64,000 bases of DNA from positions 73,295 through 137,294 of the forward strand of contig CAKOPW010000001.1 in the NCBI GenBank assembly GCA_934101115.1, given 5' to 3'. The stretch is from an uncultured Bacilli bacterium (GTDB lineage: Bacteria; Bacillota_I; Bacilli_A; RF39; UBA660). Of the stretch, positions 5,551 through 52,401 are shown piece by piece (position 1 is the stretch's first letter; the number at the start of each line of letters is the position of its first letter). The notes beneath the pieces are model-generated. The model ran no database searches, had not been told where the DNA came from, and worked only from the letters and a program-made list of their open reading frames with translations. The position numbers and the translations under genes were made by a program.

Positions 5551-7134
5551 TTATTTATCATCCTCATCTTTGTTTAATTCATATTGTTTTGTATTCATAA
5601 GATCGTTTAAAGCTTCATCAATATCGATGGTTGCATCTTTATCTTTAGAGAAATTTTCACCAATTATTTCTTCTTCAAGACCAGTTTCATCAACTGTATC
5701 TTCTGATTCTTCAACACTTTCTTCTTCTACTTTTAATTCTTCGACATTTTCGTCTTTTACTTCTTCTTTATTTTTTGGTAATTTTGGTTTTTTCTTTCTG
5801 AATAATAAAATTCCAGAAATTACGATAATTGCAAGACCAATTACTACAAGAACTATTATTAGAACTATTTTATTCTTTTTAGATTTATCATTTTTATTAT
5901 CTTCTACTATTTCATCATGTATTCTTTTACCATTATCATCAAATTTATATGTTCCATCTTCGATTTTTTTAGCTTCATCAGGATATTGTAGTTCAAAATC
6001 AGTAAATGATAAAGTTACTTCAGCACCATCACCATTTGTGAATGTTACTTTGTTGTTTAAATATGCTGTTACATCAATATCATCATCGCTTAATCTAGTG
6101 ATAATTAGTTTATATGTTTTAGCATCGTCTCCTAAAACATTTGTTACTACAATATTTATAATATTTTCTCCAACTTTTAATTCAGTTACATCATCTACGA
6201 TTACTTTAGCATTTGAATCAACTGGAGTAAATTCAATTAAACCAGCAGTTGAAGATATTTTGTTGGGAACAGTTATTCTATATTCATAGTTATTTGCTAC
6301 AAAAGCGGGTTCCATTGTATAAATTCCAACACTTAACTTAGAAAGGTTTGGACTGTTATAAGCGCTTTCACCACGTATTGTTTTAAAAGTATAAACGTTT
6401 GTTGTTTTACCACTTTCACTTTTTACAGTAATTCTGATGTCGTTATCGCCTTGATTTAAAGTAATTGTAGAGCTTTTTCCTGTTGATGAACTTCTGCTTT
6501 TACCACCTTCATATGATATTTCACAAGCTCCGTCATTACATTCTGCTGAAAATTTAATAGAATTAATCGTATCAGCTATATCAAAGATTGTATATTCAAA
6601 AACATCTTTATTAAATGTCGGATTCATACTTCCTTGCGAAATAGTGACACTTTTTAATGTAGCATCATCACTTTTAGGCTTCTTTCCGTTTACAATGTAT
6701 TTTTTAGTATCAACACTGAATAGATTGCCATTAATTTTATAAGTTATTTTAGCTATTACATCGGTATATTTTTCCTCACTAGAATTAGTAAGTATTACAT
6801 TTCCTAAAGCAGTTGCTGCATTAGCTGGAAAAGATGACTCATTAGCTTCAGCTGGATAAGTTATAACTATTCCATTTGAGCTGTTATTAGATATAATGCC
6901 TGTTCCTGATACTTTAAAATCACAACTGACAGCTCCTCTATCTGTTTCACAACTAACTAAAGTGACATTGTTAACTGTTTCATCGTCTGAAAGTTTAACA
7001 CTTATTGGTATGCGAGTTTCACCTACGTCTGTTGTAGATGTACCAAACTCCAAAGATGAAGCATGAGCAATCATTGGAAGTGCACTTCCGATTATAAATC
7101 CTCCACAGATTACTCTTTTAAAAAATTTATTCAT
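5551..7134 (-). CDS. Surface protein with a signal peptide, cadherin-like beta-sandwich repeats, a C-terminal TM anchor and an acidic tail
   Basis: N-terminal signal ending ..AHASS. Two units of the type LKSVTISQGSMNPTFNKDVFEYTI / LSKLSVGIYTMEPAFVANNYEYRITV. TM segment IVLIIVLVVIGLAIIVISGILLF followed by a K/E/D-rich tail. Confidence 0.65.
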   Translation of the reverse strand: MNKFFKRVICGGFIIGSALPMIAHASSLEFGTSTTDVGETRIPISVKLSDDETVNNVTLVSCETDRGAVSCDFKVSGTGIISNNSSNGIVITYPAEANESSFPANAATALGNVILTNSSEEKYTDVIAKITYKINGNLFSVDTKKYIVNGKKPKSDDATLKSVTISQGSMNPTFNKDVFEYTIFDIADTINSIKFSAECNDGACEISYEGGKSRSSSTGKSSTITLNQGDNDIRITVKSESGKTTNVYTFKTIRGESAYNSPNLSKLSVGIYTMEPAFVANNYEYRITVPNKISSTAGLIEFTPVDSNAKVIVDDVTELKVGENIINIVVTNVLGDDAKTYKLIITRLSDDDIDVTAYLNNKVTFTNGDGAEVTLSFTDFELQYPDEAKKIEDGTYKFDDNGKRIHDEIVEDNKNDKSKKNKIVLIIVLVVIGLAIIVISGILLFRKKKPKLPKNKEEVKDENVEELKVEEESVEESEDTVDETGLEEEIIGENFSKDKDATIDIDEALNDLMNTKQYELNKDEDDK

Positions 7135-13831: not shown

Positions 13832-16069
13832 TTAATCTTGACTTATCAATGTTATTTTTGCGTATCCATTGCCGGTGTTTCCAACAGCAGTAGATAATCC
13901 ATCATGAGAAGGCATTTGTGTTTTGGTTCCTTTAACAGTTGTCCAACTATAGCCATTACCATCTATCATTGTTGTGTTTTTAAAAATGATATTGCTGTAA
14001 TGATATGAGCAAGTTATATCGGTTGTTCCATCCTTACATGTTGCTCCCTTACTATCACTTCTTGGTGTAGTACTGTTTTGTGATGAAACCGCAACACAAC
14101 CAGCGTGTCCGGAGATAAATGATGAACCACCACCAGCACCCGAAACGGCTGTATGACCTCCGGCCCCTACCCAATCATAAAAATTTCCAGACCAGTATCC
14201 GTTTCCTCCAGTATTATTATAAAAATAGCTTCCTCCGGTATTAAGCAAAGGAACGTATCCAAAGGCGTGACCTGAAGTTTGAGTGGCGCCTTGAGCTCCT
14301 GTATGTTCTGTAACATTACCAGAAACACAACTTCCACCTTGATAACCAATCAAACCTCCAGCTGACCCTCCATATGGACTTCCCCCGTCAGTTGGATTTA
14401 AACCGCCTTGAGCTCCACCGCCGCCAGCAACCATTATTCTTGAAGTGAGAGATGATAGACTATCCCAACTACCATTTACTAACCTTATATCAGTGGCTCC
14501 TCCTCCAGTTTTAGTATAATTTTGATAACCATAATTGAAAACATAGTCCGTTGACGAAGAATCTAATCCAGATCTTCCAACATAAACATAAAATTTATTG
14601 CCTTTTTTAGCATTTAATTCACCACTTACATAACTTCCGTTTGCCGTTTGATAATAAGCGCCACCTTGCGCTCCCCAAAGCTCAAATTTGTAGGTTCCAT
14701 TTACAGGAGCGATAAAAATTTGTTCACCTCCGGTGTAGTCATAAGTCCATACTTTTTGACTATCATAAGCTTTTTTTGTTCTAGATACTTTATTTAGTTT
14801 TAACTTACATATTAAAGATTTACTATTGATATTATTTATAACTTGATTAGTGCTTTCTTGTGCTTTAATTTCTATTTGTTCGGTTGTTACATTAGTTGGT
14901 GATGATAATAAAGTGATACGAGCATATCCATTTCCTTGCTTTGCACAGTTTTCAGTTGGTGTTGCACTTGTACATGTAGTATTTATTGTTTTTGTATTTT
15001 CTTCGGAAGATTCTTCACAGCTATAGCAATACATACTTTTTTCACTTAAAAGTGAATTACCAATATAACCTGATCCTCCAGCTCCGGATCCTCCCCAAGA
15101 AGCTCCACCTCCATAGAAACCACCACCACCTGATGCCGATGCAAATTCTTTAGTTGTTGTCGATCCACCTCCAACTCCAAAATTTCCATTTAGCCATGAT
15201 TCTTTAGAATTACCAGTTAAGTTACCTCCACCGTAACCTCCGGAGCTTTGTGTTCCACCGGTTGGATTGTTGTTCGCGATTGTTCCATTTGAATAGTTTT
15301 TTGTTGTAGTGGAACCGACATAGCCTCCACCAGCACCGCCATTATCTGCTAACCACCAAGTGCAGGCTCCGCCTCCGCCTCCTGCGACAATTAAAATACC
15401 ATTTAATTTTGAACTAAATTGAGATAGATTTCCACTGTTACTTAATATATGAGTTGAACCACCACCAGTACTAAAATTGATATTGTTTGTATCAGGATTA
15501 TTAACTCTTACATTTCCACTATTAGGATAAGCATATACTACTCCTGAAGATCCGGATGAGTTTAAATTTTTTCCCTTTTCCCCAACATAAATATAAATTT
15601 TGTCACTAGAAGGTAAATTTATTGTACCACTAGAGTACCCTCCATATCCTCCGTGATAACCGTTCGAATCTGTTCCTCCTTGAGCTCCCCATACATCAAA
15701 CTTATATGTTCCACTAACTGGTACAGTAAATGTTTGCTCTCCTCCTGTATAATCATAGTTCCAAACTTTTCCTACATTTTCATCTTCTTTTACACATTCT
15801 AAATAAGCTTCTGTATCATATTCTGTTGAATCATTTACTATATCTACACTTATGTCTCCATTTATATCACTTATTGTAAATTCATCTTTTGCATCGTTTA
15901 TTCCATCCACTTCAGTACCATTTACTTTTAATGAAGATAGGTATACTTTGAAATCATTTAAGTTTTCGGCTAGCTTTGAATTTCCATATATATTTATTGT
16001 TGCATTATATGCTGCATATCCGATTGTCATAAATAAAACTGTTATCAAAAGTATTGGCATCTTCTTCAT
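13832..16069 (-). CDS. Secreted or anchored glycine-rich protein with two Gly-rich (ALK/LTK GlyR-like) modules
   Basis: 745 aa with an N-terminal hydrophobic leader. Two repeats each contain W.YDYTGGEQ.F..PV.GTYKF..WGAQGG...GGYGG, poly-G blocks (VAGGGGG, GGGGFYGGG) and a Cys-rich end MYCYSCEES...CAKQGNGYARITL. Confidence 0.75.
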   Translation of the reverse strand: MKKMPILLITVLFMTIGYAAYNATINIYGNSKLAENLNDFKVYLSSLKVNGTEVDGINDAKDEFTISDINGDISVDIVNDSTEYDTEAYLECVKEDENVGKVWNYDYTGGEQTFTVPVSGTYKFDVWGAQGGTDSNGYHGGYGGYSSGTINLPSSDKIYIYVGEKGKNLNSSGSSGVVYAYPNSGNVRVNNPDTNNINFSTGGGSTHILSNSGNLSQFSSKLNGILIVAGGGGGACTWWLADNGGAGGGYVGSTTTKNYSNGTIANNNPTGGTQSSGGYGGGNLTGNSKESWLNGNFGVGGGSTTTKEFASASGGGGFYGGGASWGGSGAGGSGYIGNSLLSEKSMYCYSCEESSEENTKTINTTCTSATPTENCAKQGNGYARITLLSSPTNVTTEQIEIKAQESTNQVINNINSKSLICKLKLNKVSRTKKAYDSQKVWTYDYTGGEQIFIAPVNGTYKFELWGAQGGAYYQTANGSYVSGELNAKKGNKFYVYVGRSGLDSSSTDYVFNYGYQNYTKTGGGATDIRLVNGSWDSLSSLTSRIMVAGGGGAQGGLNPTDGGSPYGGSAGGLIGYQGGSCVSGNVTEHTGAQGATQTSGHAFGYVPLLNTGGSYFYNNTGGNGYWSGNFYDWVGAGGHTAVSGAGGGSSFISGHAGCVAVSSQNSTTPRSDSKGATCKDGTTDITCSYHYSNIIFKNTTMIDGNGYSWTTVKGTKTQMPSHDGLSTAVGNTGNGYAKITLISQD

Positions 16070-16103
16070 TTTTACATCTTCCTTATCTTTCTATTTTTAT
16101 TTT

Positions 16104-16131
16104 ATAATACCCCCCCCGATTTTCAAGTCAA
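16104..16131 (-). promoter_or_regulatory. Sigma-A-type promoter of glycine-rich gene 1 with a G8 tract in the spacer
   Basis: Minus strand reads TTGACT (16131-16126), then a 16-nt spacer tgaaaatcGGGGGGGG, then TATTAT (16109-16104). The C8 run on the plus strand is at 16110-16117. Confidence 0.55.
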
Positions 16132-16147
16132 ACCAAAAAATTTTGCA

Positions 16148-16173
16148 CAAAAAAATTATGCTTTTTTGCATAA
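16148..16173 (-). terminator. Weak terminator after glycine-rich gene 2
   Basis: On the minus strand: TTATGC-aaaaaa-GCATAA followed by T7. Confidence 0.4.
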
Positions 16174-16178
16174 CTTTT

Positions 16179-18329
16179 TTAATCTATACTTACTAAAGTA
16201 ATACGCGCATATCCATTTCCTTGCTTTGCACAGTTTTCAGTTGGATTAGAATTCACACATGTTGTTGAAATTGTTTTAGTTGATATTTCAGTTGACTCAG
16301 TACAATTATAGCAGTACATCGCCTTATTTGATAAAAAAGAATTTCCAATATAACTAGATCCTCCACCGGCTCCAGATATTCTACTACCTCCGCCTCCATA
16401 GAAGCCGCCGCCACCTCCTACAGAATATTGTGATAAATTGAAATTGTAGTCATAACCAAGTCCAAATGAGCCACAAAGTTTATTTTCATTGTTACAACCA
16501 GCGGCAGTTTGAGTTGCTCCTAAACCATATGTATTAGCTACTGCATGAGCGGATAAGTTATATCCATCTTGTCCCTTAACTCCTCCAGCTGACCCTCCAG
16601 TACCATAATTAACCGTATTACAATATGTTCCTCCGCCGCCTCCACCGGCAACAATTAATATTTGGTCCTTATTATTTTCTAAAGTTGATAGTAAACCTGA
16701 TGTGGTTGCTATATGCGTTGCTCCGCCTCCAGAACTATTTAAACTGTACCTACAACCACGATTATTATTTTTGGCTGATCCCCCACCATTATAACCACCT
16801 TCAACAAAGCGATTAAAAGAAGTAGCTGTTTGACCAGTTCCTCCTACATTGATATAAAGAGTATCGTTAAGATTTAAATTTACATATCCTATAGAATAGC
16901 CTCCATAACCTCCACTATAAACGTCAGTAGCGCTGCCACCTTGGGCTCCCCATACCTCTAACTTATATGTTCCAGTTTCTTTTATAGAGTATTTTTCTTC
17001 CTCTCCTGTATATATAAAACTTGCTTCATTTTTTTCTTTAGAGTTTTCTTTAGATACTTTTTGAATTTTGAGACTGCAAACTAATTTCTCGCCAGTAACA
17101 TTCATAAATTTTTGCTTTAACGTGGAAGAAGATTTTATGTTGTTTTTGTTGGAAGAAAAACCAACTGGTGTCCACTCGTAGCTCTCAATAAAACTAATCT
17201 TAGCATAGCCATTTCCGGATTTAGGACAATTTGCAGTTGGTGTTGCACTTGTACATGTTGTACTTATTGTTTTTGTAGATGTTTCACTTGATTCCGTACA
17301 ATTATAACAATACATACTTTTTTCTAACAACAGTGAATTCCCTATATAACTTGAACCTCCAGCACCTGCTCCGATGTTTGCTCCACTTCCACCATAATAC
17401 CCACTTCCTCCTCCGGAACCTGCTCCGTCATGGTATATAGTCATAGCAGAATTTCCACCTTGTCCAAAAGATCCACAGTCAGCTCCGTTGCTATTACAAC
17501 CAGCCGAGCTTTGATTTCCGGGATTTGAAAGACGGCCGACACCTGTATAATCTTGTAATAAATTTGTTGGTCTCATACCTGTATATCCTCCTGCTGAGCC
17601 TCCAACACCACCATTTGAACCATTGGTATAATGTCCACCTCCGCCTCCTGCAGCTACAATAATTAAATCTTTTTTATTGTTTACAAATGTAGATAAAAGA
17701 CCTGACGAAGTTGCTATATGTGTCGCTCCGCCTCCACCAGCAGCTAGAGATTCAGTTTGAGTGTATGCTAAAGCTGAACCGCCTCCATTATATCCTCCAT
17801 CACATCTAGTAGCAGTTGTACAATTTTTACCTGTTGATCCAACATTGATATAGAGCTTATCATCAACGCTCAACTCTATATTTCCTTTTGAATAACCACC
17901 ATAGCCTCCATGAAATTCATCATTTGCACTTCCACCTTGCGCTCCCCAAACTTCTAGAGTATACACTCCGTTTACTGGTGCAGTAAATGTTTGTTCGCTT
18001 CCTGTATAGTCAAAAGACCATTCATCACCAGCAATCTTTTTTGTAAGTTCACACTCTAAGTAAGCATCGGCATCATATTCTGTTGAATCATTTTTTATTT
18101 CATATTCAACGCTCCCATTTAAAGTAGAGTCTATTGTAAATTCGTCTTTTGCATCATTTATTCCATTCACTTCTGTTCCATTTACTTTTAATGAAGATAA
18201 GTATACTTTAAAGTCACTTAAGTTTTCAGCTAGCAATGTATTTCCATATATGTTTATTGTTGCATTATATGCTGCATAGCCTATTACCATAAATAAAACT
18301 GTTATCAAAAGTATTGTTGTTTTCTTCAT
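16179..18329 (-). CDS. Paralogous glycine-rich protein with two Gly-rich modules
   Basis: 716 aa. The first ~65 aa and the 5' leader are nearly identical to those of 13832-16069, and the architecture is the same (WGAQGG..GGYGGYS.., MYCYNCTES...NGYA.I). Confidence 0.75.
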   Translation of the reverse strand: MKKTTILLITVLFMVIGYAAYNATINIYGNTLLAENLSDFKVYLSSLKVNGTEVNGINDAKDEFTIDSTLNGSVEYEIKNDSTEYDADAYLECELTKKIAGDEWSFDYTGSEQTFTAPVNGVYTLEVWGAQGGSANDEFHGGYGGYSKGNIELSVDDKLYINVGSTGKNCTTATRCDGGYNGGGSALAYTQTESLAAGGGGATHIATSSGLLSTFVNNKKDLIIVAAGGGGGHYTNGSNGGVGGSAGGYTGMRPTNLLQDYTGVGRLSNPGNQSSAGCNSNGADCGSFGQGGNSAMTIYHDGAGSGGGSGYYGGSGANIGAGAGGSSYIGNSLLLEKSMYCYNCTESSETSTKTISTTCTSATPTANCPKSGNGYAKISFIESYEWTPVGFSSNKNNIKSSSTLKQKFMNVTGEKLVCSLKIQKVSKENSKEKNEASFIYTGEEEKYSIKETGTYKLEVWGAQGGSATDVYSGGYGGYSIGYVNLNLNDTLYINVGGTGQTATSFNRFVEGGYNGGGSAKNNNRGCRYSLNSSGGGATHIATTSGLLSTLENNKDQILIVAGGGGGGTYCNTVNYGTGGSAGGVKGQDGYNLSAHAVANTYGLGATQTAAGCNNENKLCGSFGLGYDYNFNLSQYSVGGGGGFYGGGGSRISGAGGGSSYIGNSFLSNKAMYCYNCTESTEISTKTISTTCVNSNPTENCAKQGNGYARITLVSID

Positions 18330-18362
18330 TTTTACATCTCCGTATCTTTCTATTTTTATTTT

Positions 18363-18390
18363 ATAATACCCCCCCCGATTTGCAAGTTAA
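18363..18390 (-). promoter_or_regulatory. Duplicate promoter of glycine-rich gene 2 with a G8 tract in the spacer
   Basis: Minus strand reads TTAACT (18390-18385), then a 16-nt spacer tgcaaatcGGGGGGGG, then TATTAT (18368-18363). The C8 run on the plus strand is at 18369-18376. Confidence 0.5.
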
Positions 18391-18413
18391 TTCAAAAATA
18401 TTTGCACAAAAAT

Positions 18414-18446
18414 CAAAAAAACATCATTTTATAGTTGATGTTTTTG
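18414..18446. terminator. Bidirectional hairpin terminator, probably the end of the mnmA transcript
   Basis: ACATCA-ttttatagt-TGATGT flanked by A7 on the left and T5 on the right. Confidence 0.5.
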
Positions 18447-18470
18447 GTAAAATCGTGATATCATTTATTT

Positions 18471-18542
18471 GGTGAGCAAATCACCTGTTTATGGGAATAC
18501 TCATAGACACCACTTTGGTAGCTCTTCTCGGCTACCTTTTTT
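18471..18542 (+). ncRNA. Candidate small RNA (about 72 nt) of unknown class
   Basis: Plus strand has TTGATG (18435-18440), 18 nt, then an extended -10 TGaTATCAT (18456-18464). It also has hairpin GGTGA-gcaaa-TCACC, and a terminator GGTAGC-tcttctcg-GCTACC followed by T6 that has a U-tail only on the plus strand. No plus-strand ORF is present. Confidence 0.25.
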
Positions 18543-18562
18543 GTTGCAATAAAAAAAGCTTT

Positions 18563-19672
18563 TTATAAATACCAAAGCTTTTCTCCGTTTTTTCTAACTG
18601 TTTTAATTATTCCTGATCCAATACATTGTTCACCTAGATAAATAACACATGCTTGTCCTGGAGTAACTGCTGGAACTTTTTCTGGATAACTTACTTTTAT
18701 TTCATTATTATCCAAATATTCTAACATTACTTCATAATCCGGCCCACGATATCTAAATTTTGCTGTTGCAAATGTTGGGTGATTTGGGCTAATCAAGTTA
18801 ACGTCTTCAATTATACACTCATCACTATAAAGGGTTTCTGGATTATCACCAAAAGCGACAAATAAGATATTTTTCTCTACATCTTTTCCAACAACAAAAT
18901 GTTTATCTTTAAAACCTGATACTCCAACATTTCTTCTTTGACCAATTGTATAATTCATTAAACCATTGTGAGTACCAATAATTTCTCCTGAGTCTATATC
19001 AACTATATTACCTGGATTAGGTTTTAAATAGTTATGTAAAAATTTTTGATAATTTCTTTCTCCGATAAAACAAATACCTGTGGAATCTTTTTTCTTGGCT
19101 GTTGGAAGATTTATCTTACTTGCAATTTCTCTAACTTCACTTTTTTCTAAATCACCGACTGGAAATAAAACATCTTTTAATTGGTCTGCTGATACTTGAG
19201 CTAAAAAGTAAGTTTGATCTTTATTAGAATCAACTCCTCTTAAAAGTTTGTTTCCAACTATTCTAGCATAATGACCTGTTGCAATATAATCAGCTCCAAG
19301 TTTTTTTGCTTCTTTTTTAAATAAATCAAATTTAATATATTTGTTACACATTAAATCAGGATTTGGAGTTCTTCCTTTTTTTAATTCATCCAAGAAATAT
19401 GTGAATACGTTATCCCAATACTCTTTAATAAAATCAACCCTATGTAAAGGAATACCTAAAGTGTTACAAACCTCTAACGCATCATTATAATCTTGTTCTT
19501 GCGGACATATATTATTTCCTAAATTAGGATTTCCTTCTGTATCATTATTAACTAAAGAGTCCCAATTTCTCATAAACAGTCCAATTACTTCGTATCCTTG
19601 CTTTTGTAGTAAATAAGCAGCAACTGATGAATCAACACCGCCACTCATACCAACAACAACTTTTTTAGCCAT
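18563..19672 (-). CDS. mnmA: tRNA 2-thiouridine(34) synthase
   Basis: PP-loop VVGMSGGVDSSVAA and the rest of the MnmA sequence (CNKYIKF, GHYAR). Confidence 0.95.
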   Translation of the reverse strand: MAKKVVVGMSGGVDSSVAAYLLQKQGYEVIGLFMRNWDSLVNNDTEGNPNLGNNICPQEQDYNDALEVCNTLGIPLHRVDFIKEYWDNVFTYFLDELKKGRTPNPDLMCNKYIKFDLFKKEAKKLGADYIATGHYARIVGNKLLRGVDSNKDQTYFLAQVSADQLKDVLFPVGDLEKSEVREIASKINLPTAKKKDSTGICFIGERNYQKFLHNYLKPNPGNIVDIDSGEIIGTHNGLMNYTIGQRRNVGVSGFKDKHFVVGKDVEKNILFVAFGDNPETLYSDECIIEDVNLISPNHPTFATAKFRYRGPDYEVMLEYLDNNEIKVSYPEKVPAVTPGQACVIYLGEQCIGSGIIKTVRKNGEKLWYL

Positions 19673-26961: not shown

Positions 26962-27480
26962 TTATTCAACAATTTTATATCCTTGACGATTATAACAATT
27001 AGTTACAGTTGCTGAAGAACCAGCTTTACAAGCAACATATTCATTTAAACCAGCTACTTGAGTTTTGTCTAAAGATTGAATTGCTGTTTTATCATCTGCT
27101 TTTGGCATTTTTTGATCTGTAACATCCCAACTTAATGTCATATAGTTAGAATCCCAAAGATAAACAATATAATGTGGATTGTCAACATCTTCAGCATTTA
27201 CAACTACATATCCTTTATAATCACCAGTTGATGTATATCCTAAATCTTTTTCAATATTGTAAACATATCTTCCTGCTCCAGCAATTGCTCCTCCATTTGA
27301 ATCATAAACATATTGAGTAGTTGTATCTTTTACAACTTTTTCAATATATATAGCAAATGAGCTTCTTCTTGCACTTGCCATTGTTTCAAGTACTGTTGGA
27401 ATAGCAATTATCATTATAATAGCTAAAATTACTATAACAGCAAGTAACTCAACTAAAGTAAAACCATTTTTCTTTTTCAT
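26962..27480 (-). CDS. Type IV pilin/pseudopilin-like protein
   Basis: Class III signal MKKKNG|FTLVELLAVIVILAII, with G-1, F+1 and E+5. Confidence 0.8.
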   Translation of the reverse strand: MKKKNGFTLVELLAVIVILAIIMIIAIPTVLETMASARRSSFAIYIEKVVKDTTTQYVYDSNGGAIAGAGRYVYNIEKDLGYTSTGDYKGYVVVNAEDVDNPHYIVYLWDSNYMTLSWDVTDQKMPKADDKTAIQSLDKTQVAGLNEYVACKAGSSATVTNCYNRQGYKIVE

Positions 27481-27541
27481 AAATATCCTCTTCCTATCTT
27501 AAATTAATTATATATTTTATCTAATTTATAGTCAATACTTT

Positions 27542-29236
27542 TTAAATGTTTTTGTCTTCGTTGTTTGTATCAATAATGTCATTTTTATTTTTTGCTTTTC
27601 TGCTTGTTCTCTTATTTGCACTTATTATTACAAGTAATGCTATAAGGGCTACTCCTAAGCCAGCTATTAAGAATTTCAAGAACGTACTCATAATATTTGA
27701 CTCTTTTTTAGTATGGACTGTTATAGTATAAACTTTCTTATAGTATCCGTTTTCACTAGTGACATATATGCTAATCTTTGAGCCATCTGTTAAAGATTCG
27801 TTTCCTTCCATATAAGCACGAGCTTGAGAAGATGTTGTTTCATATCTTATCGGTAATGAATCAGTATCAACTATTGTAAGTTCATATTCGTATTTGTTTT
27901 TGTCGAATTCTAACATATATCCGGAAATAGTTAAACTAGAAAGAGATGCATCACTTGATGGAAGTGTTGGATCTGGAAGTCCTTCTTCTCTATTATATAT
28001 TGGAGCATCATTCGTTCTTGTGACTTCAACAATATTTCCAAGTTCATCTAATCTTCTTACTTGAATATAATAATTAGCTTCTTTACTTTCGTTTGGATTC
28101 GATAGATTAATTCTTATTATATTAGATCCAATAGTTAATCCATCAGCCCCGATAATTGAAACGACAGTGTTTGGATCTGTTGATGTTGCTGAAATTGAAA
28201 GTGATGAAACACCATTTGGAACAGTAAGTTCGTAGTTAAATTTCATTGGGCTAAATGAAATATCATAGCCAGATACATTTAATGTATTTAAAAGCAATGC
28301 TGTCTTTTCAGGTTCTATTGTTGTAGAAGGTATAACATATGTTTGACGAGTTGTTGTTGTAGTTTTATCAGCTTCAATCGTTTGTCTTTCATTGGTTGTA
28401 GTCGTTGTAGCTTGACTCGTTTTGTCATCTACTATAGAACTTGTAGTTACTTTTGTTGTGCCATCAGTTGTTGTTGATTGATTAGTTACTTTTGTCGTTT
28501 TAACGGTTGTTGTTCCTTTGGTTTCGTCTCCTGTAGACGAACAACTTAGACTTGAAATGCTTAAATCGCCTTTGGATTGCATTTCATCGTAGAAAGTTTC
28601 CATTGGCATATCTTTATTAAATAAAACGTTTTCGACTTTATAATTATTATCCTTTAAAGTAATATACACATCATAACGATATGAATCTTTTGCTCCAGTA
28701 TCTCTTCCACTTACGCATGTAGTATCGCTTGTTCTTAATGTCTTAGTAGCATCAGCATATTTGTAGTTATAGCAAAGTTTATCATTTTCCCCAATTGTTT
28801 TATTAATATTTACCTCTGTTTTACCCTCTTCATAATAATAAGTTTCATTTGGTGTACATGATCCGGAGCTAGTTACGCAATAATATATTCCACTTAAACT
28901 ATCGTTTTTAATAGATGCAGTAGCGACTAAATTTCCTGAAGATACAGCTACACGATTTATTTTAACCCAGCCCTCATATTTACCAGTGTTACTGATGTCT
29001 AAATCTTTAGATATATCATATACAGCGCATTCAGTATTGCTCTTGTTTAAGTCTAAATCTTGAGTATACTTAGCAGTTGCCTTGCTTTGTAAACTTTGAG
29101 CATATAAGTAAAACGATTCCTTTCTTGCACTTCCAATTGACTTCATAATACTTGGCACTACTACTATCATTATAAGCGCTAAAACAACGATAACAGCTAG
29201 TAATTCTACCAAAGTAAAGCCATTTTTCTTTTTCAC
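27542..29236 (-). CDS. Prepilin-leader protein with a Thr-rich linker, two cadherin-like beta-sandwich domains and a C-terminal TM anchor
   Basis: Same MKKKNG|FTLVELLAVIV leader. T-rich stretch around residues 230-290. Units LNVSGYDISFSPMKFNYELTV and LTISGYMLEFDKNKYEYELTI. C-terminal TM FLKFLIAGLGVALIALLVIISA. Confidence 0.7.
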   Translation of the reverse strand: MKKKNGFTLVELLAVIVVLALIMIVVVPSIMKSIGSARKESFYLYAQSLQSKATAKYTQDLDLNKSNTECAVYDISKDLDISNTGKYEGWVKINRVAVSSGNLVATASIKNDSLSGIYYCVTSSGSCTPNETYYYEEGKTEVNINKTIGENDKLCYNYKYADATKTLRTSDTTCVSGRDTGAKDSYRYDVYITLKDNNYKVENVLFNKDMPMETFYDEMQSKGDLSISSLSCSSTGDETKGTTTVKTTKVTNQSTTTDGTTKVTTSSIVDDKTSQATTTTTNERQTIEADKTTTTTRQTYVIPSTTIEPEKTALLLNTLNVSGYDISFSPMKFNYELTVPNGVSSLSISATSTDPNTVVSIIGADGLTIGSNIIRINLSNPNESKEANYYIQVRRLDELGNIVEVTRTNDAPIYNREEGLPDPTLPSSDASLSSLTISGYMLEFDKNKYEYELTIVDTDSLPIRYETTSSQARAYMEGNESLTDGSKISIYVTSENGYYKKVYTITVHTKKESNIMSTFLKFLIAGLGVALIALLVIISANKRTSRKAKNKNDIIDTNNEDKNI

Positions 29237-45003: not shown

Positions 45004-45636
45004 CTATTTGATTGAAAATATATTTAATGGATCTATGGCTGCTTCATCTGAGAGAGAATAATCATTATAAACTGCAAAATGTAAACTAGTAAATTCAATT
45101 TCTTTATTTTTTCCTATGGTTGCAATTTTGTCTCCTGATTTTACAACGTCATTTGGTTTAACAAGGATATCGTTTAGACCACCATAAAGCGTGAAGTATC
45201 CATTTGAGTGCTTTATAATAACTACTTTACCATATTTATCTTCAAGCATTGATAAATTATCAGGCTTTACAACTACTCCGTCATATGCTGAATATACAGG
45301 TGAATCAAATTCAATTCCACCAATATCAACTCCTTTATGTTCTGCTCCCCATCTCTTTTTAAATCCTGCTATAACAACAAAGGGTTGCTCAGTTGGCCAT
45401 GTCCAATCATTAATATTAGAAGTATAAGAATAATTAGATTTATGATTAATGGTATAGTAATAAGTGATTTTCTTGTTATTAAATATTATAAATGAAAATG
45501 ATATTAAAACGAAAAAGCTAACAAGTATGGGTTTAAGATAATTCTTACCTTTTTGATAAACTGTTTTATTAAGAATTTTATTTTCTAAATCTTCATTCAT
45601 CTCTATTTTTGAATAATATTCTTTTATTTTATTCAT
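45004..45636 (-). CDS. Anti-sigma-like single-TM protein fused to an M23 (LytM) peptidase domain
   Basis: The stop of the sigma gene overlaps this start. TM ILVSFFVLISFSFIIF. HKGVDIGG (HxxxD) is present, but SLHFAVY replaces the HxH motif. Confidence 0.65.
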   Translation of the reverse strand: MNKIKEYYSKIEMNEDLENKILNKTVYQKGKNYLKPILVSFFVLISFSFIIFNNKKITYYYTINHKSNYSYTSNINDWTWPTEQPFVVIAGFKKRWGAEHKGVDIGGIEFDSPVYSAYDGVVVKPDNLSMLEDKYGKVVIIKHSNGYFTLYGGLNDILVKPNDVVKSGDKIATIGKNKEIEFTSLHFAVYNDYSLSDEAAIDPLNIFSIK

Positions 45637-46100
45637 TGATTATCACCTTCCATCATATTTTTTAATTTTTTTCTAGTTCTAGATAATAACACTTTAACAT
45701 TGACTTCTGATAGCTTCATCATTTCGGCTATTTCTTTTATTTTATATCCTTCGTAGTAATGTAAAAAAACTATAATTCTTTCTCTTTTATTTAGGTTTGC
45801 TATAACATCTAGTAAATCATTATTGCTATCAGATGTTTTTATATCTTTATCATCAAATAAAGATACTTTTATTCGCCAATGAGATAAAAATAAACTTTTA
45901 CATTCATTGATTGTAACTTTAAATAGCCATTTTTTAATGCTGTCTTTATCAAGTTTTAAAATATCTTTATGTTTATATAATTTAACAAAAACATTTTGAG
46001 TTATATCATCAGTATCAGATTTGTTTTTAGTATAACTATAAGCAAGTCGATAAACATCATTTTTATATAAATTAAATATTTTTATAAACTCATCATTCAT
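45633..46100 (-). CDS. ECF-type sigma-70 family factor
   Basis: 155 aa with region 2 (DDITQNVFVKLY) and region 4 (YEGYKIKEIAEMMKLSEVNVKVLLSRTRKKL). Confidence 0.85.
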   Translation of the reverse strand: MNDEFIKIFNLYKNDVYRLAYSYTKNKSDTDDITQNVFVKLYKHKDILKLDKDSIKKWLFKVTINECKSLFLSHWRIKVSLFDDKDIKTSDSNNDLLDVIANLNKRERIIVFLHYYEGYKIKEIAEMMKLSEVNVKVLLSRTRKKLKNMMEGDNQ

Positions 46101-47860: not shown

Positions 47861-48889
47861 TCATTTTAAATTATTATTACATAAAATTGCCTCAATCTTA
47901 TTCACATAGTTATATGAATTAGAATGACTTGCATGTCCTAAAAAAGAATTATAACTTAATAAAAATTTTTTATCATAAAACATATTATTGTTTTTTAAAT
48001 ATATCCATTGTTTAATTGACTTCTTTACTTTCTTTTTAAAGCGTTTTCTAAGAAGAATATGTGTTGGATAAATAATATATCCACAAAAATCAATACCTAA
48101 TTTATTAGGATAATATCTGCTTTTATGATTAAGCGACAGATTTAAATGGGCACTTACAAAAGTTGAAACTAAGTTGAGCACTTCTTTTGCTTCATCTTTG
48201 GTTTTTAAAATAAAAATCTGATCGTCCATATATCTTGTATAAAATTTTATTTTTAGTTCATCTTTTACATAATGGTCTAATTCATTTAAATAAATATTGG
48301 CAAAGAACTGACTGGTATAATTACCAATTGGAATTCCGACTTCGTTGCCATCATCAAGAATTTTTTTACTGAATTCAAGTAATTTTTTATCTTTAATTTT
48401 TGATGCTAAAATCTTTAATAATATTTCTTTATCTATACTATAAAAATATTTTTTTATATCGGTTTTTAAAATATAACAGTTTTTTCCATATAGTTTAGTT
48501 GCATTTCTCAATTGATTTTGAACACATATAACTGATTTATGCGTTCCTCGATTATCTAAACATGCATATGTATCATTGATGAACCGTTTCATAAAATAAG
48601 GCTTTATAAATTCTTCAACATACCATTGATGAACTATACGATCACGGTAAGGCAAAGATTTTATTATTCTTTCTTTTGGTTCATGAATAACAAATTCTCG
48701 ATATTCACCAAACTTATAAGTATTATTTTTTATCTCGTCCATTATTCTTATAAGATTAGTTTCTAATTCCATTTCAAATATTATTACTTCTTTTTTAGTC
48801 TTTTTACCTTTAGAAGCACGTATGTGGGCACTTAACATTTTTTCGAAAGTCAATTTAGATAGAAAAACATTTTTTATTGTTTTAGGCAT
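47861..48889 (-). CDS. DGR reverse transcriptase
   Basis: EPKERIIKSLPYRDRIVHQ, LKTDIKKYFYSID, PIGNYTSQFFANIYL (the DGR-specific IGxxxSQ block) and YTRYMDDQ. Collinear with my recollection of Bordetella phage Brt. Confidence 0.9.
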   Translation of the reverse strand: MPKTIKNVFLSKLTFEKMLSAHIRASKGKKTKKEVIIFEMELETNLIRIMDEIKNNTYKFGEYREFVIHEPKERIIKSLPYRDRIVHQWYVEEFIKPYFMKRFINDTYACLDNRGTHKSVICVQNQLRNATKLYGKNCYILKTDIKKYFYSIDKEILLKILASKIKDKKLLEFSKKILDDGNEVGIPIGNYTSQFFANIYLNELDHYVKDELKIKFYTRYMDDQIFILKTKDEAKEVLNLVSTFVSAHLNLSLNHKSRYYPNKLGIDFCGYIIYPTHILLRKRFKKKVKKSIKQWIYLKNNNMFYDKKFLLSYNSFLGHASHSNSYNYVNKIEAILCNNNLK

Positions 48890-49236
48890 GCATTTATCCA
48901 GCCTCCTAAAGACATACTAACTAAATTTATTTTTCTACTCCATGCTTCATAATTACGAATGTTTATATATTTTCTTTTGTATGATAATCTAGCAAATACC
49001 CTTTGCATTTTTAAATTGATATCAAGTTCATTTAAGTATTTTAATTTTTCCTTTTTATCAAATGACTTATATGCTAGTAAAATATACTTGATACCTTCGT
49101 AGGATGAATTTTTTATTGTTGCAACTATGCCTGATTTAGTTGAATTAGGATATTTCTCAGTGATCATTTCAAGATATATAATAAAATCCATGTATATTTG
49201 ATAAATTCGTGTTTCTTCAACACAGCTAGCTTTCAC
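48874..49236 (-). CDS. avd: Accessory variability determinant (four-helix-bundle protein)
   Basis: 120 aa, helical, ending SLGGWINA. Overlaps both neighbours and lies immediately upstream of the RT. Confidence 0.75.
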   Translation of the reverse strand: MKASCVEETRIYQIYMDFIIYLEMITEKYPNSTKSGIVATIKNSSYEGIKYILLAYKSFDKKEKLKYLNELDINLKMQRVFARLSYKRKYINIRNYEAWSRKINLVSMSLGGWINACLKQ

Positions 49237-49597
49237 TAATGAGCTTCTCCTTTACATCTTTTAATATATTCAATGCCTGCAAGGGCGTTATAGAATCAAT
49301 GTCTAAGTTGATTATTTTTTCTTTAATTGAATCATCTATATTAGTTTTTAAACTATCTACAACTTCGACGTCTAAGTTGTGATTTTTAAAAACGCGCATG
49401 TAGTTATCAAGAACATCAGCAGGAAAACCACATTTGTATGATTCACTTGAGAATTTTACTTTTTTTAATACAACATAATCATTGATAGTATCACAATCTT
49501 CACCAACAAATATATAAAATTTGCCAGATTTAAAAAGATATAATTTGTTTGCATCTTCTTTTTTTAATTGCAAATACTTTTGATATATCACACTCAA
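49226..49597 (-). CDS. MutS domain-I-like small protein (DGR accessory)
   Basis: From TTG 49597 (AAAGGAGGTGG upstream): SVIYQKYLQLKKEDANKLYLFKSGKFYIFVGEDCDTIN...KCGFPADVLDNYMRVFKNHNLDVEVV. This parallels the MutS N-terminus: mqQY..iK.....lLfFR.GDFYElF..DA...PMaGiP......Y...L...G..VAi. Confidence 0.6.
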   Translation of the reverse strand: MSVIYQKYLQLKKEDANKLYLFKSGKFYIFVGEDCDTINDYVVLKKVKFSSESYKCGFPADVLDNYMRVFKNHNLDVEVVDSLKTNIDDSIKEKIINLDIDSITPLQALNILKDVKEKLISES

Positions 49598-49620
49598 TAT
49601 TACCACCTCCTTTAATCCTA

Positions 49621-49645
49621 TTAAAAAAGTGGAAATGATCCACTT
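49621..49645 (-). terminator. Hairpin terminator/attenuator between the TR and the accessory operon
   Basis: On the minus strand: AAGTGGA-tcatt-TCCACTT followed by TTTTTAA, just upstream of the RBS of 49226-49597. Confidence 0.5.
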
Positions 49646-49836
49646 CTTTTTATCTTTGATGTTCATCATTTTACTACTAACCAAAGACATTCTTTTTTAT
49701 ATTTTATTCTACTATGTAGAAAGGTTATAAATTTCTAAAATAAACACTAAAACAAAATCCGTAGATTAATGATATAAAATATGAATATATTTTTCTTATC
49801 TTTGTTTATGTGAAGAATAATCTTATATATTTTAGT

Positions 49837-49986
49837 GGAGAGAACAAGGCGGAACCCGATGTTAGCATTGGCGCCTCCTGTGTTCCTATTGAAGTTGAAC
49901 TGACCTGCGAGAACTCCATTGTCGTAATTGCCGCCCCGATTGAACCAAGGATACGAGGAGTCAACAAAGTTCGAATTGTCGCCATA
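49837..49986 (-). repeat. DGR template repeat (TR)
   Basis: 150 bp, ungapped match to 50184-50333. Asn (AAY)-rich in the reading frame of the VR. Confidence 0.9.
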
Positions 49987-50090
49987 AAGAGTAAAAAGAG
50001 TCAAAAAAGCTAATTTCAACAACTTATAACCTACATTTATACTAAGACTAATAAATTAATATTTTAAACTAACCTACTAGACATAAATGC

Positions 50091-50134
50091 CAAAAAAGTG
50101 ATTCCTTTCCGCTTAAAAAGAAGGCGGAAAGGAA
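50091..50134 (-). terminator. Terminator of the DGR target gene
   Basis: 11-bp stem TTCCTTTCCGC/GCGGAAAGGAA followed by TCACTTTTTTG on the minus strand. Confidence 0.7.
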
Positions 50135-50156
50135 TATTAAAAGTGAAAAAAGTAAT

Positions 50157-50180
50157 TGTAAAAAAACAAGTTTTTTTACA
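50157..50180 (-). promoter_or_regulatory. Hairpin abutting the VR 3' end, candidate DGR target-recognition element
   Basis: Perfect 10-bp stem TGTAAAAAAA/TTTTTTTACA with a 4-nt loop, starting right after the stop codon (50181-50183). Confidence 0.5.
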
Positions 50181-51590
50181 CTAGGAGAGAACAAGGCGGA
50201 ACCCGATGTCAGCAGCGGCGCCTCCTGTGAGCCTAGAGAAGTGGAACTGACCTGCGAGAACTCCATGGTCGTACCTGCCGCCCCGATAGAACCAAGGAGA
50301 CGAGGAGTGAACAAAGTGCGAACTGCCGCCATACCAACTATTATGGTATCTAGAGTTGTTATCTCCGTCTAAATATGTCTTGAATGGTCCCATCTCTCCC
50401 GTTGCATCTCCTAATATTCTATATTGATAAGATGTTAATGTAGATGATGCTGAGTATACATCATAATATTTAGAATCATAATTAGCAAGTGTTGTAGCAC
50501 TAAAACCACTTGATCCTAATTGACCACTCATATATGATGCCACATATTCATGTGCTCCACCAGACATATCATATATTCCACTTATATTTCCAGTAGTTGT
50601 TGCAAGATAACCGATACTTGTATTATAAGCGTTATTATATGTGTTTCCATCACCATAAGTTCCTGGATATGTTTGTTGGCTTGTACTTGGAAGTGCTGAA
50701 TATCCTGTTTTATATGAACTATTATTATTAATGTTAACTTCCGCATTGATTCCATATTTTGAATGGCTTAGATATGCTACTGCTCCCCATTCAGTGTTTT
50801 TCATCATATGTGAATTCATTGCTCTTTTATAATTATAAGCAGCTGTAAACATATTCATGACTGTTAAATTTCTCCATGAATAAGAATTTGGTTTTACAAT
50901 TATTTTGCTTGAATCATTGGAATTTACTTGAGCAGCAGTTGCACTTGTTGCTCCATTGTATCCAGTTTCAAACTTACCTGCCCAGAAGCCATTTACTCCC
51001 ATGCTTATAAATGCTGGATGTGTCATATATTCTCCGTTTTTACAATTTCCACTTGATCCACTTGTCATTGGAGTTTTACAAGATACTCCGGTTACATCTG
51101 TTGTATCAGTTGTATCAAATATTATCTCGATTTCATGAATATTTTTTGAAGCCGTTCCAGTATTCCATAACTTATATTTATATTTTGGAATCCATACAAA
51201 GTAACTTTGGATATCACTTTCTTTTATTGTGTCTCCTACTTTATAACTTGCTCCACTATTAAGAATAACGGCATTTGCCCAAACTTTATCACAGTAGTTA
51301 TACCATACTTTACTTGTATCGGCGTATGTTACAGTTCCATCATCTGAAATAGTAACTGGTATTAAACCATCGGTTAAATTGGGAACTGCAACTTCTTTTG
51401 AACAAGATGTTAAATCAGATGCCTTGCTATAAAGTTCATCTAATGCATCTTGAACGTTTTTGGATTTTAATAAAGACGAAGAATTATCATAATATACATC
51501 TTTTCCGATAATTAAATCTGCTGCATATGCTACACTTACAAATAGTACTAATGCACACATACCAATTATTAATATTTTTCTATTTTTCAT
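50181..51590 (-). CDS. DGR target protein: secreted, with a C-terminal C-type-lectin/FGE-like variable domain
   Basis: Signal peptide ..VSVAYAAD. HMMKNTEWGAVAYL and a C-terminal ...PWFYRGG.Y..GVLAGQF.F.R..GGA..DIGFRLVLS typical of the CLec fold of DGR targets. Confidence 0.8.
   Translation of the reverse strand: MKNRKILIIGMCALVLFVSVAYAADLIIGKDVYYDNSSSLLKSKNVQDALDELYSKASDLTSCSKEVAVPNLTDGLIPVTISDDGTVTYADTSKVWYNYCDKVWANAVILNSGASYKVGDTIKESDIQSYFVWIPKYKYKLWNTGTASKNIHEIEIIFDTTDTTDVTGVSCKTPMTSGSSGNCKNGEYMTHPAFISMGVNGFWAGKFETGYNGATSATAAQVNSNDSSKIIVKPNSYSWRNLTVMNMFTAAYNYKRAMNSHMMKNTEWGAVAYLSHSKYGINAEVNINNNSSYKTGYSALPSTSQQTYPGTYGDGNTYNNAYNTSIGYLATTTGNISGIYDMSGGAHEYVASYMSGQLGSSGFSATTLANYDSKYYDVYSASSTLTSYQYRILGDATGEMGPFKTYLDGDNNSRYHNSWYGGSSHFVHSSSPWFYRGGRYDHGVLAGQFHFSRLTGGAAADIGFRLVLS
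50184..50333 (-). repeat. DGR variable repeat (VR), the last 50 codons of the target gene
   Basis: 17 mismatches to the TR, of which 15 fall at TR adenines on the coding strand. Confidence 0.9.
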
Positions 51591-51600
51591 AACACCACTC

Positions 51601-52401
51601 CTACACTAACATCGAATTAATTTCATCTATTGCACATTGAACTGTTTCACAAATAGATCTTGATTTTGTATTATCATACTTAGTATATCTAGCATGTAAA
51701 ATAGACCAATCTGCATAGAGAATTTCATCTTCATCATCTTCTATTTTTGTCTTTTCATCAATAGTTTCTTTATCTTTATTAATCCAACCAAGAAAAATTG
51801 AATCTCCCCTTACAGTATTTGGCAAACCTTCATAAGTAGTATTTCCATCATATATTGTATAAGGTTTATCAATACTAGCTCCAGTTGAAGAATAGAAAAC
51901 AGCTTTGTTCTTCTTCACCGCAGTATCACGTGATACATCTTCATATGTTAATCTACATAGAATTGTTTTTTCGGTTGTATCACTTTTACTTATTGTCATC
52001 TCTCCAGAATTGATTTGTTGAGCACTAATTAGAGAATCAAAATTATTAGTAATATTTAATGTTGTATTGTCACTTGCTGAACAACTTAACTTAGCCGACT
52101 CATCATATTCTGTTGCATTATTTCTAACATAATAATCGATTTTAGTTGTTGTTCCGCTCATGGTAAAAGTGAAACTGGATAAATCATCTGATAAATAATC
52201 AAAATGATTTACAGAATCTACAAATACGTTTCCAATGTAACAATCCAAGTCACTTAGGTTAGCTGCTAATAAAGCGTTTCCTTTTGTGAACAGCTTACTA
52301 CTAACTGTTGCATAACCTATTGTCATAAGAACCAGACAACATATAATTATGTTCTGTTTAGATAAATGATAATTTTTTAGTTTGTTTGCAATTTTTTTCA
52401 C
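51601..52401 (-). CDS. Anchored protein with a Listeria-Bacteroides (Flg_new) repeat
   Basis: Leader LVLMTIGYATV... The N-domain is related to that of the glycine-rich proteins. C-terminal GLPNTVRGDSIFLGWINKD...ILYADWS. Lies 10 nt upstream of the DGR target gene. Confidence 0.6.
   Translation of the reverse strand: MKKIANKLKNYHLSKQNIIICCLVLMTIGYATVSSKLFTKGNALLAANLSDLDCYIGNVFVDSVNHFDYLSDDLSSFTFTMSGTTTKIDYYVRNNATEYDESAKLSCSASDNTTLNITNNFDSLISAQQINSGEMTISKSDTTEKTILCRLTYEDVSRDTAVKKNKAVFYSSTGASIDKPYTIYDGNTTYEGLPNTVRGDSIFLGWINKDKETIDEKTKIEDDEDEILYADWSILHARYTKYDNTKSRSICETVQCAIDEINSMLV

Follow-up and report, generated by a model that had tools for sequence, protein, structure and literature searches.

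The window analysed here is a 64,000-nt stretch of DNA with a G+C content of about 28%, in which an uninterrupted run of eight G's is found on the minus strand (16110..16117; C8 on the plus strand) upstream of a gene for a glycine-rich, putative surface protein. The initial annotation described this run as a candidate phase-variation switch, in which slipped-strand gain or loss of one G would alter the spacing between the -35 and -10 hexamers of the promoter. Whether the tract is a switch of this kind, or a fixed component of the promoter, is the question raised by this locus.

The G8 tract and the promoter of gene 1

On direct reading of the window, the minus strand at the promoter of gene 1 is ggTTGACTtgaaaatcGGGGGGGGTATTATaaaataaaaatagaaagatAAGGAAGatgtaaaaATGaag, and from 16131 to 16067 it runs TTGACT-tgaaaatc-GGGGGGGG-TATTAT-aaaataaaaatagaaagat-AAGGAAG-atgtaaaa-ATG. 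The anatomy first described was borne out, with TTGACT at 16131-16126, G8 at 16117-16110 and TATTAT at 16109-16104 leaving a 16-nt spacer, half of which is the G run. The Shine-Dalgarno-like AAGGAAG (16078..16084, minus strand) was also present, but the ATG that abuts it runs straight into a TAA, and the real start of gene 1 is the next ATG (16069-16067), 8 nt downstream of the motif.

A run scan of the 64-kb window returned exactly two G/C runs of six or more, each of length 8 (16110-16117 and 18369-18376) and each on the minus strand in a 16-nt spacer 5' of one of two paralogous glycine-rich (ALK_LTK_GRD) genes. GGGGGGGG was observed twice in the window and in none of 100 dinucleotide-preserving shuffles (chance expectation 0.00 per window), confirming the claim that such a run is rare and is matched only at the paralogous promoter. 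The longest A/T run was 9 despite an A+T content of 72%, showing that long homopolymers are generally rare in the window. With eight G's the tract lies within the length range of homopolymers prone to slipped-strand mispairing (about 7-8 G/C or more).

Gene 1 (13832..16069, minus strand) encodes a protein of 745 aa that begins with a signal or anchor sequence (MKKMPILLITVLFMTIGYAAYN...), and gene 2 (16179..18329, minus strand) a 716-aa paralogue. Both N-termini are basic-hydrophobic, and both proteins contain two ALK/LTK-type glycine-rich domains, with PF12810 matched over two stretches in each (E = 1e-70 for gene 1 and 4.4e-76 for gene 2) and carried by all of their listed homologues. The two proteins are 45% identical overall and approximately 95% identical over the first 65 aa. 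The pair is flanked by mnmA and dnaG-rpoD, and related strains have only one glycine-rich gene between mnmA and dnaG, indicating that the window pair arose by tandem duplication. The only other assembly with an identical gene 1 protein begins inside the G run (GGGTATTAT..., L036 1-3); the contig may have broken there at a repeat or for want of coverage, and it is uninformative on tract length. A protein look-up returned no record for the gene 2 protein.

Between the two genes, an AT-rich hairpin followed by seven T's (TTATGC-AAAAAA-GCATAA then T7; 16149..16173, minus strand) was read directly from the sequence, its G+C content being below the threshold of the terminator scan. It is a probable terminator of gene 2 and, located ahead of the gene 1 promoter, would uncouple the transcription of gene 1 from that of gene 2. 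The interval between mnmA and gene 2 (18400-18560) is strongly structured on the plus strand (MFE -44.8 kcal/mol, z = -5.45), with four hairpins ending in a terminator-like GGTAGC...GCTACC plus T6, and its sequence is conserved in related strains (L191-L193). No Rfam match was obtained for this interval, which may encode a small RNA antisense to the surrounding genes.

A promoter scan gave two overlapping candidates, 5 bp apart, both with the G8 in a spacer of 16 nt. The pair TTGAAA (16121..16126) and TAAAAT (16099..16104), both on the minus strand, matches 10 of the 12 sigma-70/sigma-A consensus positions, with a spacer inside the 16-18 nt range. Generic promoter-like matches were not enriched in the region (27 found against 21.3 expected), so that it is conservation among relatives, and not the scan, that speaks for a promoter. 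In all of approximately 90 related promoter copies, including those with a decayed spacer, TTGAAA or TTGACA is present together with TAAAAT or TATACT. The overlapping TTGACT (16126..16131, minus strand) is not conserved; it is missing from many relatives, and most copies in the metagenome-assembled genome (MAG) CAKOKD01 have TGCCCT or ATGACT instead. Because the TTGAAA/TAAAAT pair is universal in relatives and TTGACT often missing, the hexamers were shifted by 5 bp, and the true pair is probably TTGAAA-N16-TAAAAT, the -10 hexamer of which shares one base with TATTAT (16104-16109). The hexamers originally named were thus probably misplaced by 5 bp, although the G8 fills half of a 16-nt spacer in either register. 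The family-wide conservation of the hexamers supports the wider claim of a sigma-A-type promoter with the tract in its spacer, driving one gene for a secreted or surface protein as well as the paralogous gene.

The resulting 36-nt promoter core, TTGAAAATCGGGGGGGGTATTATAAAATAAAAATAG, spans 16091..16126 on the minus strand, with the G8 at positions 4-11 of the spacer. In all promoter types of the family, including the G-less TGTATAAT and TGGTAAAAT types, the -10 element lies 6-8 nt before a conserved (A)TAGA motif. This constant distance places the start of transcription downstream of TAAAAT, likely near 16091-16092. Two other arrangements were considered and rejected. An ECF-sigma promoter (TGxAAC, N16-17, CGTx) would require the upstream TGTAAAC, which is too far from CGGG (20-21 nt) and belongs to a motif that is not conserved in the window, and a hairpin using the G run, formed by CCC...GGG pairing in the CAKOKD copies, is absent from the window and so is not conserved. 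No RNA family was found at either promoter with Rfam, searched over the whole window at the gathering threshold and over 16000-18620 at a permissive E-value.

The promoter cassette and its gene family

The core, TTGAAAATC-G8-TATTATAAAATAAAAATAG, occurs twice in the window against an expectation of 0. The second copy, TTGCAAATC-G8-TATTATAAAATAAAAATAG (18350..18385, minus strand), contains the G8 at 18369-18376. Beyond the window the core was found again in MAGs of uncultured gut 'Bacilli' and in 'Firmicutes bacterium CAG:582'. At least 41 copies of G-type promoters were found in MAG CAKOKD01 and 20 in CAKOJJ01, with further copies in CAG:582, CAKOKS01, CAKONX01, CAAFAN01, CAKOTA01 and 12 gut metagenomes. 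Approximately 94 distinct promoter copies were collected from species-representative genomes and metagenomes by pattern scans combined with protein-based retrieval. Retrieval of genes by protein similarity is independent of promoter sequence, and the roughly 50 copies with a G-type promoter obtained in this way are referred to as the unbiased set.

The promoter belongs to genes that share an N-terminal module (MKK...IGFAAVSTTLIINGN / IGYAAYNATINIYGN), of which protein-based retrieval brought up 229 relatives from a small number of genomes. The C-terminal domains joined to it vary, with glycine-rich domains (GRD) in the window and DUF285/LRR domains elsewhere, and this multigene family with a signal or anchor and GRD or DUF285/LRR domains is of the surface-gene class in which contingency loci are found. 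Approximately 40% of the family members retrieved have an unrelated, G-less promoter. These include a third locus of the window (50181-52401), with two members (51601-52401 and 50181-51590) that have the N-termini ...LMTIGYATVSS... and ...VSVAYAADLIIG..., respectively, and a different, G-less promoter; neither was matched by a Pfam or NCBIfam family.

Several features of the cassette differ between genomes. Leaders in the CAG:582-like species (L018-L035) read aaagatagatgatgcaaaATG, without an obvious Shine-Dalgarno sequence, compared with GGAAG/GGAG in the window and GAGGTG in CAKOKD, and two copies of that species have a GTG start codon. In L187-L193 (approximately 110 nt upstream of the ATG), L194, L195 and L198 there is an additional promoter farther upstream, with TTGTATAAT or GTGTATAAT as an extended -10 element and motifs of the TATTTACA type ahead of it. 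This is the type used by the G-less family members, and loci such as L187-L193 therefore have tandem promoters. Contigs in CAKOKD01 and CAKOJJ01 frequently begin or end at or near the cassette; these breaks are probably repeat-induced, though heterogeneous tract length would predict them too.

The window also contains a diversity-generating retroelement (47861-51590), with a reverse transcriptase at 47861-48889 (Pfam RVT_1). Its 150-nt template repeat (49837-49986) is 89% identical to a variable repeat (50184-50333), and 15 of the 17 mismatches are at template adenines. The variable repeat forms the C-terminal end of a 469-aa surface protein (50181-51590), the N-terminus of which resembles that of a G8-promoter-driven protein in another genome (L017). 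The retroelement diversifies another member of the surface-protein family to which genes 1 and 2 belong. Elsewhere in the window, a gene for an ECF-type sigma factor (45633-46100) overlaps a downstream gene with an M23-peptidase domain (45004-45636), the product of which is a possible anti-sigma partner of that factor. Proteins resembling type IV pilins, with a methylation motif at the N-terminus and in one case a cadherin-like domain, are encoded within 26962-29236 and 5551-7134, together with another secreted protein with cadherin-like domains.

The 5' cassettes of gene 1 and gene 2 are approximately 90% identical in DNA sequence, with several synonymous differences in the first 60 codons. 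A 44-nt promoter block that includes the core shows 0 differences between the two genes, against approximately 10% in the surrounding cassette. The core is also identical between species in which the N-terminal protein identity has fallen to 30-37% and the leader, upstream region and signal peptide have diverged. Identity over such divergence, in an AT-rich genome, argues that the core, including the pure G run, is under purifying selection, which appears to be aided by concerted evolution of the cassette. The ATC and TATTA flanks of the spacer are about as invariant as the G run, in a sample that was partly retrieved by core sequence; a model of length and mutability alone would not predict this.

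Length of the tract among paralogues and samples

Within the unbiased set a pure G8 was present in 41 copies, 36 of which have a 16-nt spacer, with changes outside the run giving 15, 17 or 18 nt in the rest. G7 was found in four copies and G9 in one. The tract was interrupted in a further four (GGGGTGGG, GGGGAGGAG, GGGGGAGGAG and GAGGGAGGAA) and decayed in five (L038, L087, L111, L112 and L125), the decayed copies keeping both hexamers and a spacer of 16-18 nt. Pure tracts were thus G8 in 41 of 46 cases, and G8 was found in approximately 76 of the 94 promoter copies overall; its share of pure tracts is about 85-90% across at least seven genomes. Interrupted tracts such as GGGGTGGG and GGTGGGGG keep 8 nt. 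Since interrupted and decayed tracts retain a spacer of 16-18 nt, spacer length would clearly seem to be under selection and to be kept more strictly than the sequence of the tract.

Gain or loss of one G, as first proposed, has counterparts among paralogues, namely the four G7 copies and the single G9 in about 50 unbiased copies. The G9 state, with the 17-nt spacer that had been called optimal, was found only that once in the unbiased set. Nearest-neighbour analysis gave at least three independent changes from G8 to G7. The sister paralogues L093 and L099 share G7 at 5.7% nucleotide divergence (approximately 18% synonymous), with 47 synonymous and 77 non-synonymous codon differences over 392 codons and a rough dN/dS of approximately 0.45. 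A G7 shared by sisters that are both diverged and constrained indicates that G7 is not a dead OFF state and that it does not become randomised quickly. Every G7, G9 and interrupted copy is followed by a complete ORF, of 395-503 aa.

Orthologous loci from different gut samples gave a more uniform picture. At the mnmA-GRD-dnaG locus the tract is G8 in five samples (L187-L189, L192 and L193), GGTGGGGG in L024 and decayed, with a 13-nt spacer, in L191. The locus adjacent to ruvA has G8 in six samples and GTGGGGG in one, and a third locus has GTG8 in two samples and GAGGAGGGGG (GAGGAG5) in three, with a length of 10 nt throughout. The reliable observations of G8 at orthologous loci are L187-L189, L192 and L193 together with L021/L031/L027/L028/L034/L190. 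No reliable between-strain difference in the length of a pure tract at one locus was found among the orthologous loci listed, a comparison of few copies among the matches listed, with similar places merged. Apparent exceptions were set aside: G6 and G7 in the VOFC01 contigs (L020 and L022) occur where every gene is frameshifted, as is typical of homopolymer errors, and a G6 in CAG:582 (L181) is 17-43 nt from a scaffold end and was treated as unreliable. Comparison of tract length among strains, which had been suggested as a check on switching, therefore has a divided outcome, with G7 and G9 present among paralogues but the pure tract always G8 at orthologous loci.

A distant branch of the family, represented by MAGs GCA_964634785.1 and GCA_949443625.1 and by proteins with DUF285/LRR C-termini, has poly-A at the position homologous to G8. 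The layout is ...GGTGC-A19/A20-TGG (or GTG)-TAAAAT/TACAAT-N6-8-TAGAG, with lengths of 19, 19, 19, 20 and 20 in addition to one decayed copy with A8. The recurring feature is hence a homopolymer directly upstream of the -10 element and not G itself, and this independence of the base argues against a G-specific protein site. Comparison of the two branches favours a role in slippage or spacing, or possibly in the rigidity of homopolymer DNA. Just upstream of a family gene with an A19 promoter, and divergent from it, is a gene for a tyrosine recombinase (integrase-like, 318 aa; L052 388-1344, minus strand), a hint that the family may there be subject to DNA inversion or recombination as well.

Contingency element, fixed element or relic of descent

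The reading that we favour, held tentatively and at slightly under an even chance, is that the tract is a spacer-setting, slippage-prone promoter element, a dial of the contingency type with G8 as its favoured setting. A shared sigma-A-type cassette, consisting of TTGAAA, the 16-nt ATC-G8-TATTA, TAAAAT and a start near ATAG, would drive the two window genes and dozens of secreted or surface paralogues in a gut Bacilli lineage related to 'Firmicutes bacterium CAG:582'. Because the tract is a homopolymer its length could change by slipped-strand mispairing, and the addition or removal of one G would set the spacer to 17 or 15 nt and so alter promoter strength gene by gene. Variants of one G would arise often enough to be the consensus in approximately 10% of paralogues, while being too infrequent or too little favoured to displace G8 as the consensus of most genes and samples. 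From the comparison of sequences we infer the identity of the promoter and its start site, the effect of tract length on transcription and, at a further remove, reversible and adaptive switching. Rapid on/off switching by the G8 tract is plausible. The proposal of a phase-variation switch is partly supported, by the tract itself, its position in the spacer, the class of gene and the paralogues with one G more or fewer, but the length is far more uniform than at known contingency loci. Such uniformity could mean a low rate of switching at a tract of minimal length, combined with selection for G8. Extended to the scale of the genome, the same reading would describe a new contingency system in a widespread, uncultured human-gut lineage, with 20-40 or more modular surface genes per small genome and a homopolymer cassette at each (G8 in the CAG:582-like clade, A19-20 in a sister clade). 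Each cell would then show its own random selection or dosage of surface proteins, and the diversity-generating retroelement would add variation to the same family. Strict G8 would then reflect strong selection for an ON or medium setting, with rare pre-existing variants as bet-hedging. We regard this larger system as less likely than not.

Much of the same uniformity would follow if the whole of ATC-G8-TATTA were a sequence- or shape-specific element of constant length that co-regulates the family, as an operator or as a rigid block tuning RNA polymerase contact or supercoiling sensitivity, with the G7 and G9 copies as tolerated or mildly deleterious accidents. Such an element would account for an exact G8 in about 85-90% of copies from at least seven genomes and many samples, for a G8 that remains at eight, and next to TATTA, in spacers lengthened to 17-18 nt by insertions elsewhere (AATC-G8, ATCGT-G8 and ATTGC-G8), for the near invariance of ATC and TATTA, and for the decay of the whole spacer together in decayed copies. 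Both poly(dA) and poly(dG) form unusually stiff DNA, and the A19/A20 counterpart also fits a structural role through rigidity. A single protein-recognition sequence, however, cannot be both G8 and A19-20. The element showed no dyad symmetry, and the window has no regulator gene linked to the locus; we know of no bacterial factor that binds a G8 tract. Intact genes also lie behind interrupted or decayed tracts that persist across samples (GAGGAGGGGG in three samples, GGTGGGGG and GGGGTGGG), and a fixed element is on balance unlikely.

Descent and gene conversion would require less still of the tract, the 5' cassette being homogenised among paralogues and the G8 a frozen accident that fills 8 nt of spacer. 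The cassette is indeed far more alike between paralogues than the rest of the genes, contigs often break at it as they do at a repeat, and heteropolymeric replacements of the tract appear viable. An unselected G8 should nevertheless decay quickly at 28% G+C, and conversion cannot explain identity of the core between species with a strongly diverged leader, upstream region and signal peptide. Nor does homogenisation account for a core block with 0 differences in 44 nt between the window pair when its surroundings differ by approximately 10%, or for the emergence of a second homopolymer, A19-20, at the same place in another branch. We consider conversion as the sole cause improbable. It is highly improbable that the G run is itself transcribed, from an upstream TGTAAA/TGCAAA, N16-17, GAAAAT promoter starting in or just before the run, as a site of reiterative transcription or a leader-RNA feature. 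A semi-conserved TGTAAA/TGCAAA does occur 14-15 nt upstream of TTGAAA in many copies, and some orthologous loci have the extra upstream TTGTATAAT promoter, but the TGTAAA/TGCAAA and GAAAAT hexamers match poorly (3/6 and 4/6), their spacing varies from 16 to 19 nt, and in the window the sequence immediately upstream of gene 1 is a probable terminator hairpin, with no TGTATAAT there. No conserved C- or U-rich partner of the run and no Rfam match were found, and the distance from the -10 element to (A)TAGA puts the start downstream of TAAAAT.

The contingency-type dial has precedents, since homopolymer-controlled promoters are well known in pathogens including Neisseria, Treponema, Mycoplasma and Bordetella. 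The vlp genes of M. hyorhinis form a multigene surface family with a conserved 5' cassette (promoter, leader and signal peptide) and poly-A in each promoter spacer; their products are lipoproteins whose C-termini are repetitive, and in any one cell the tract is of different length from gene to gene, with most of the genes OFF. The A19/A20 branch resembles this system even more closely than the G8 promoters do. In the family described here, by contrast, the signal or anchor is not of the lipoprotein type, the proteins carry GRD, DUF285/LRR or other domains, and nearly all copies have G8.

In T. pallidum, the OmpW homologue tp0126 has poly-G between its -35 and -10 elements and is best expressed with a 17-nt spacer, eight or fewer G's are permissive at the tprE/G/J/F/I/L paralogues, and minority lengths can be present in a population whose majority length is stable (PMC7864442). 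The likeness lies in a homopolymer of approximately eight G's in or next to the promoters of paralogous putative surface proteins. In T. pallidum the tracts vary from 7 to 12 within and between isolates by fragment-length analysis, whereas the assembly consensus in the gut Bacilli is almost always 8, in an AT-rich background and inside an invariant 36-nt cassette with 20-40 or more copies per genome. A homopolymer between -35 and -10 also sets the spacer of N. meningitidis porA (poly-G) and opc (poly-C), acting as a 'volume control' of transcription (PMC7864442). Those are single genes with strain-variable tracts of 9-14, in contrast to a multigene family in which one length predominates strongly and is as short as mutable tracts are known to be. 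G/C runs of eight or more in the AT-rich genomes of Campylobacter jejuni and Helicobacter are reported to be rare, strongly non-random and concentrated in surface-structure genes (PMC6321876, PMC2823697). Such tracts are mostly intragenic and frameshifting, are spread across unrelated genes and vary between strains, whereas every tract seen here belongs to one promoter cassette. To our knowledge, and as far as could be found, homopolymer-controlled promoters are apparently undescribed for uncultured, AT-rich commensal Bacilli of the human gut. The proposed mechanism is of a known kind; the lineage, the protein family, the scale of 20-40 or more copies per genome and the division between G8 and A19-20 clades are new as far as found.

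If the tracts switch, dozens of surface proteins would be independently adjustable, which would bear on evasion of immunity and phages, on the tracking of strains in metagenomes and on assembly breaks and indels. If they do not, a near-perfect block of eight G's in the spacer would stand as an unexplained feature of promoter architecture. In either case the 36-nt cassette provides a simple, searchable marker for this family of surface proteins.
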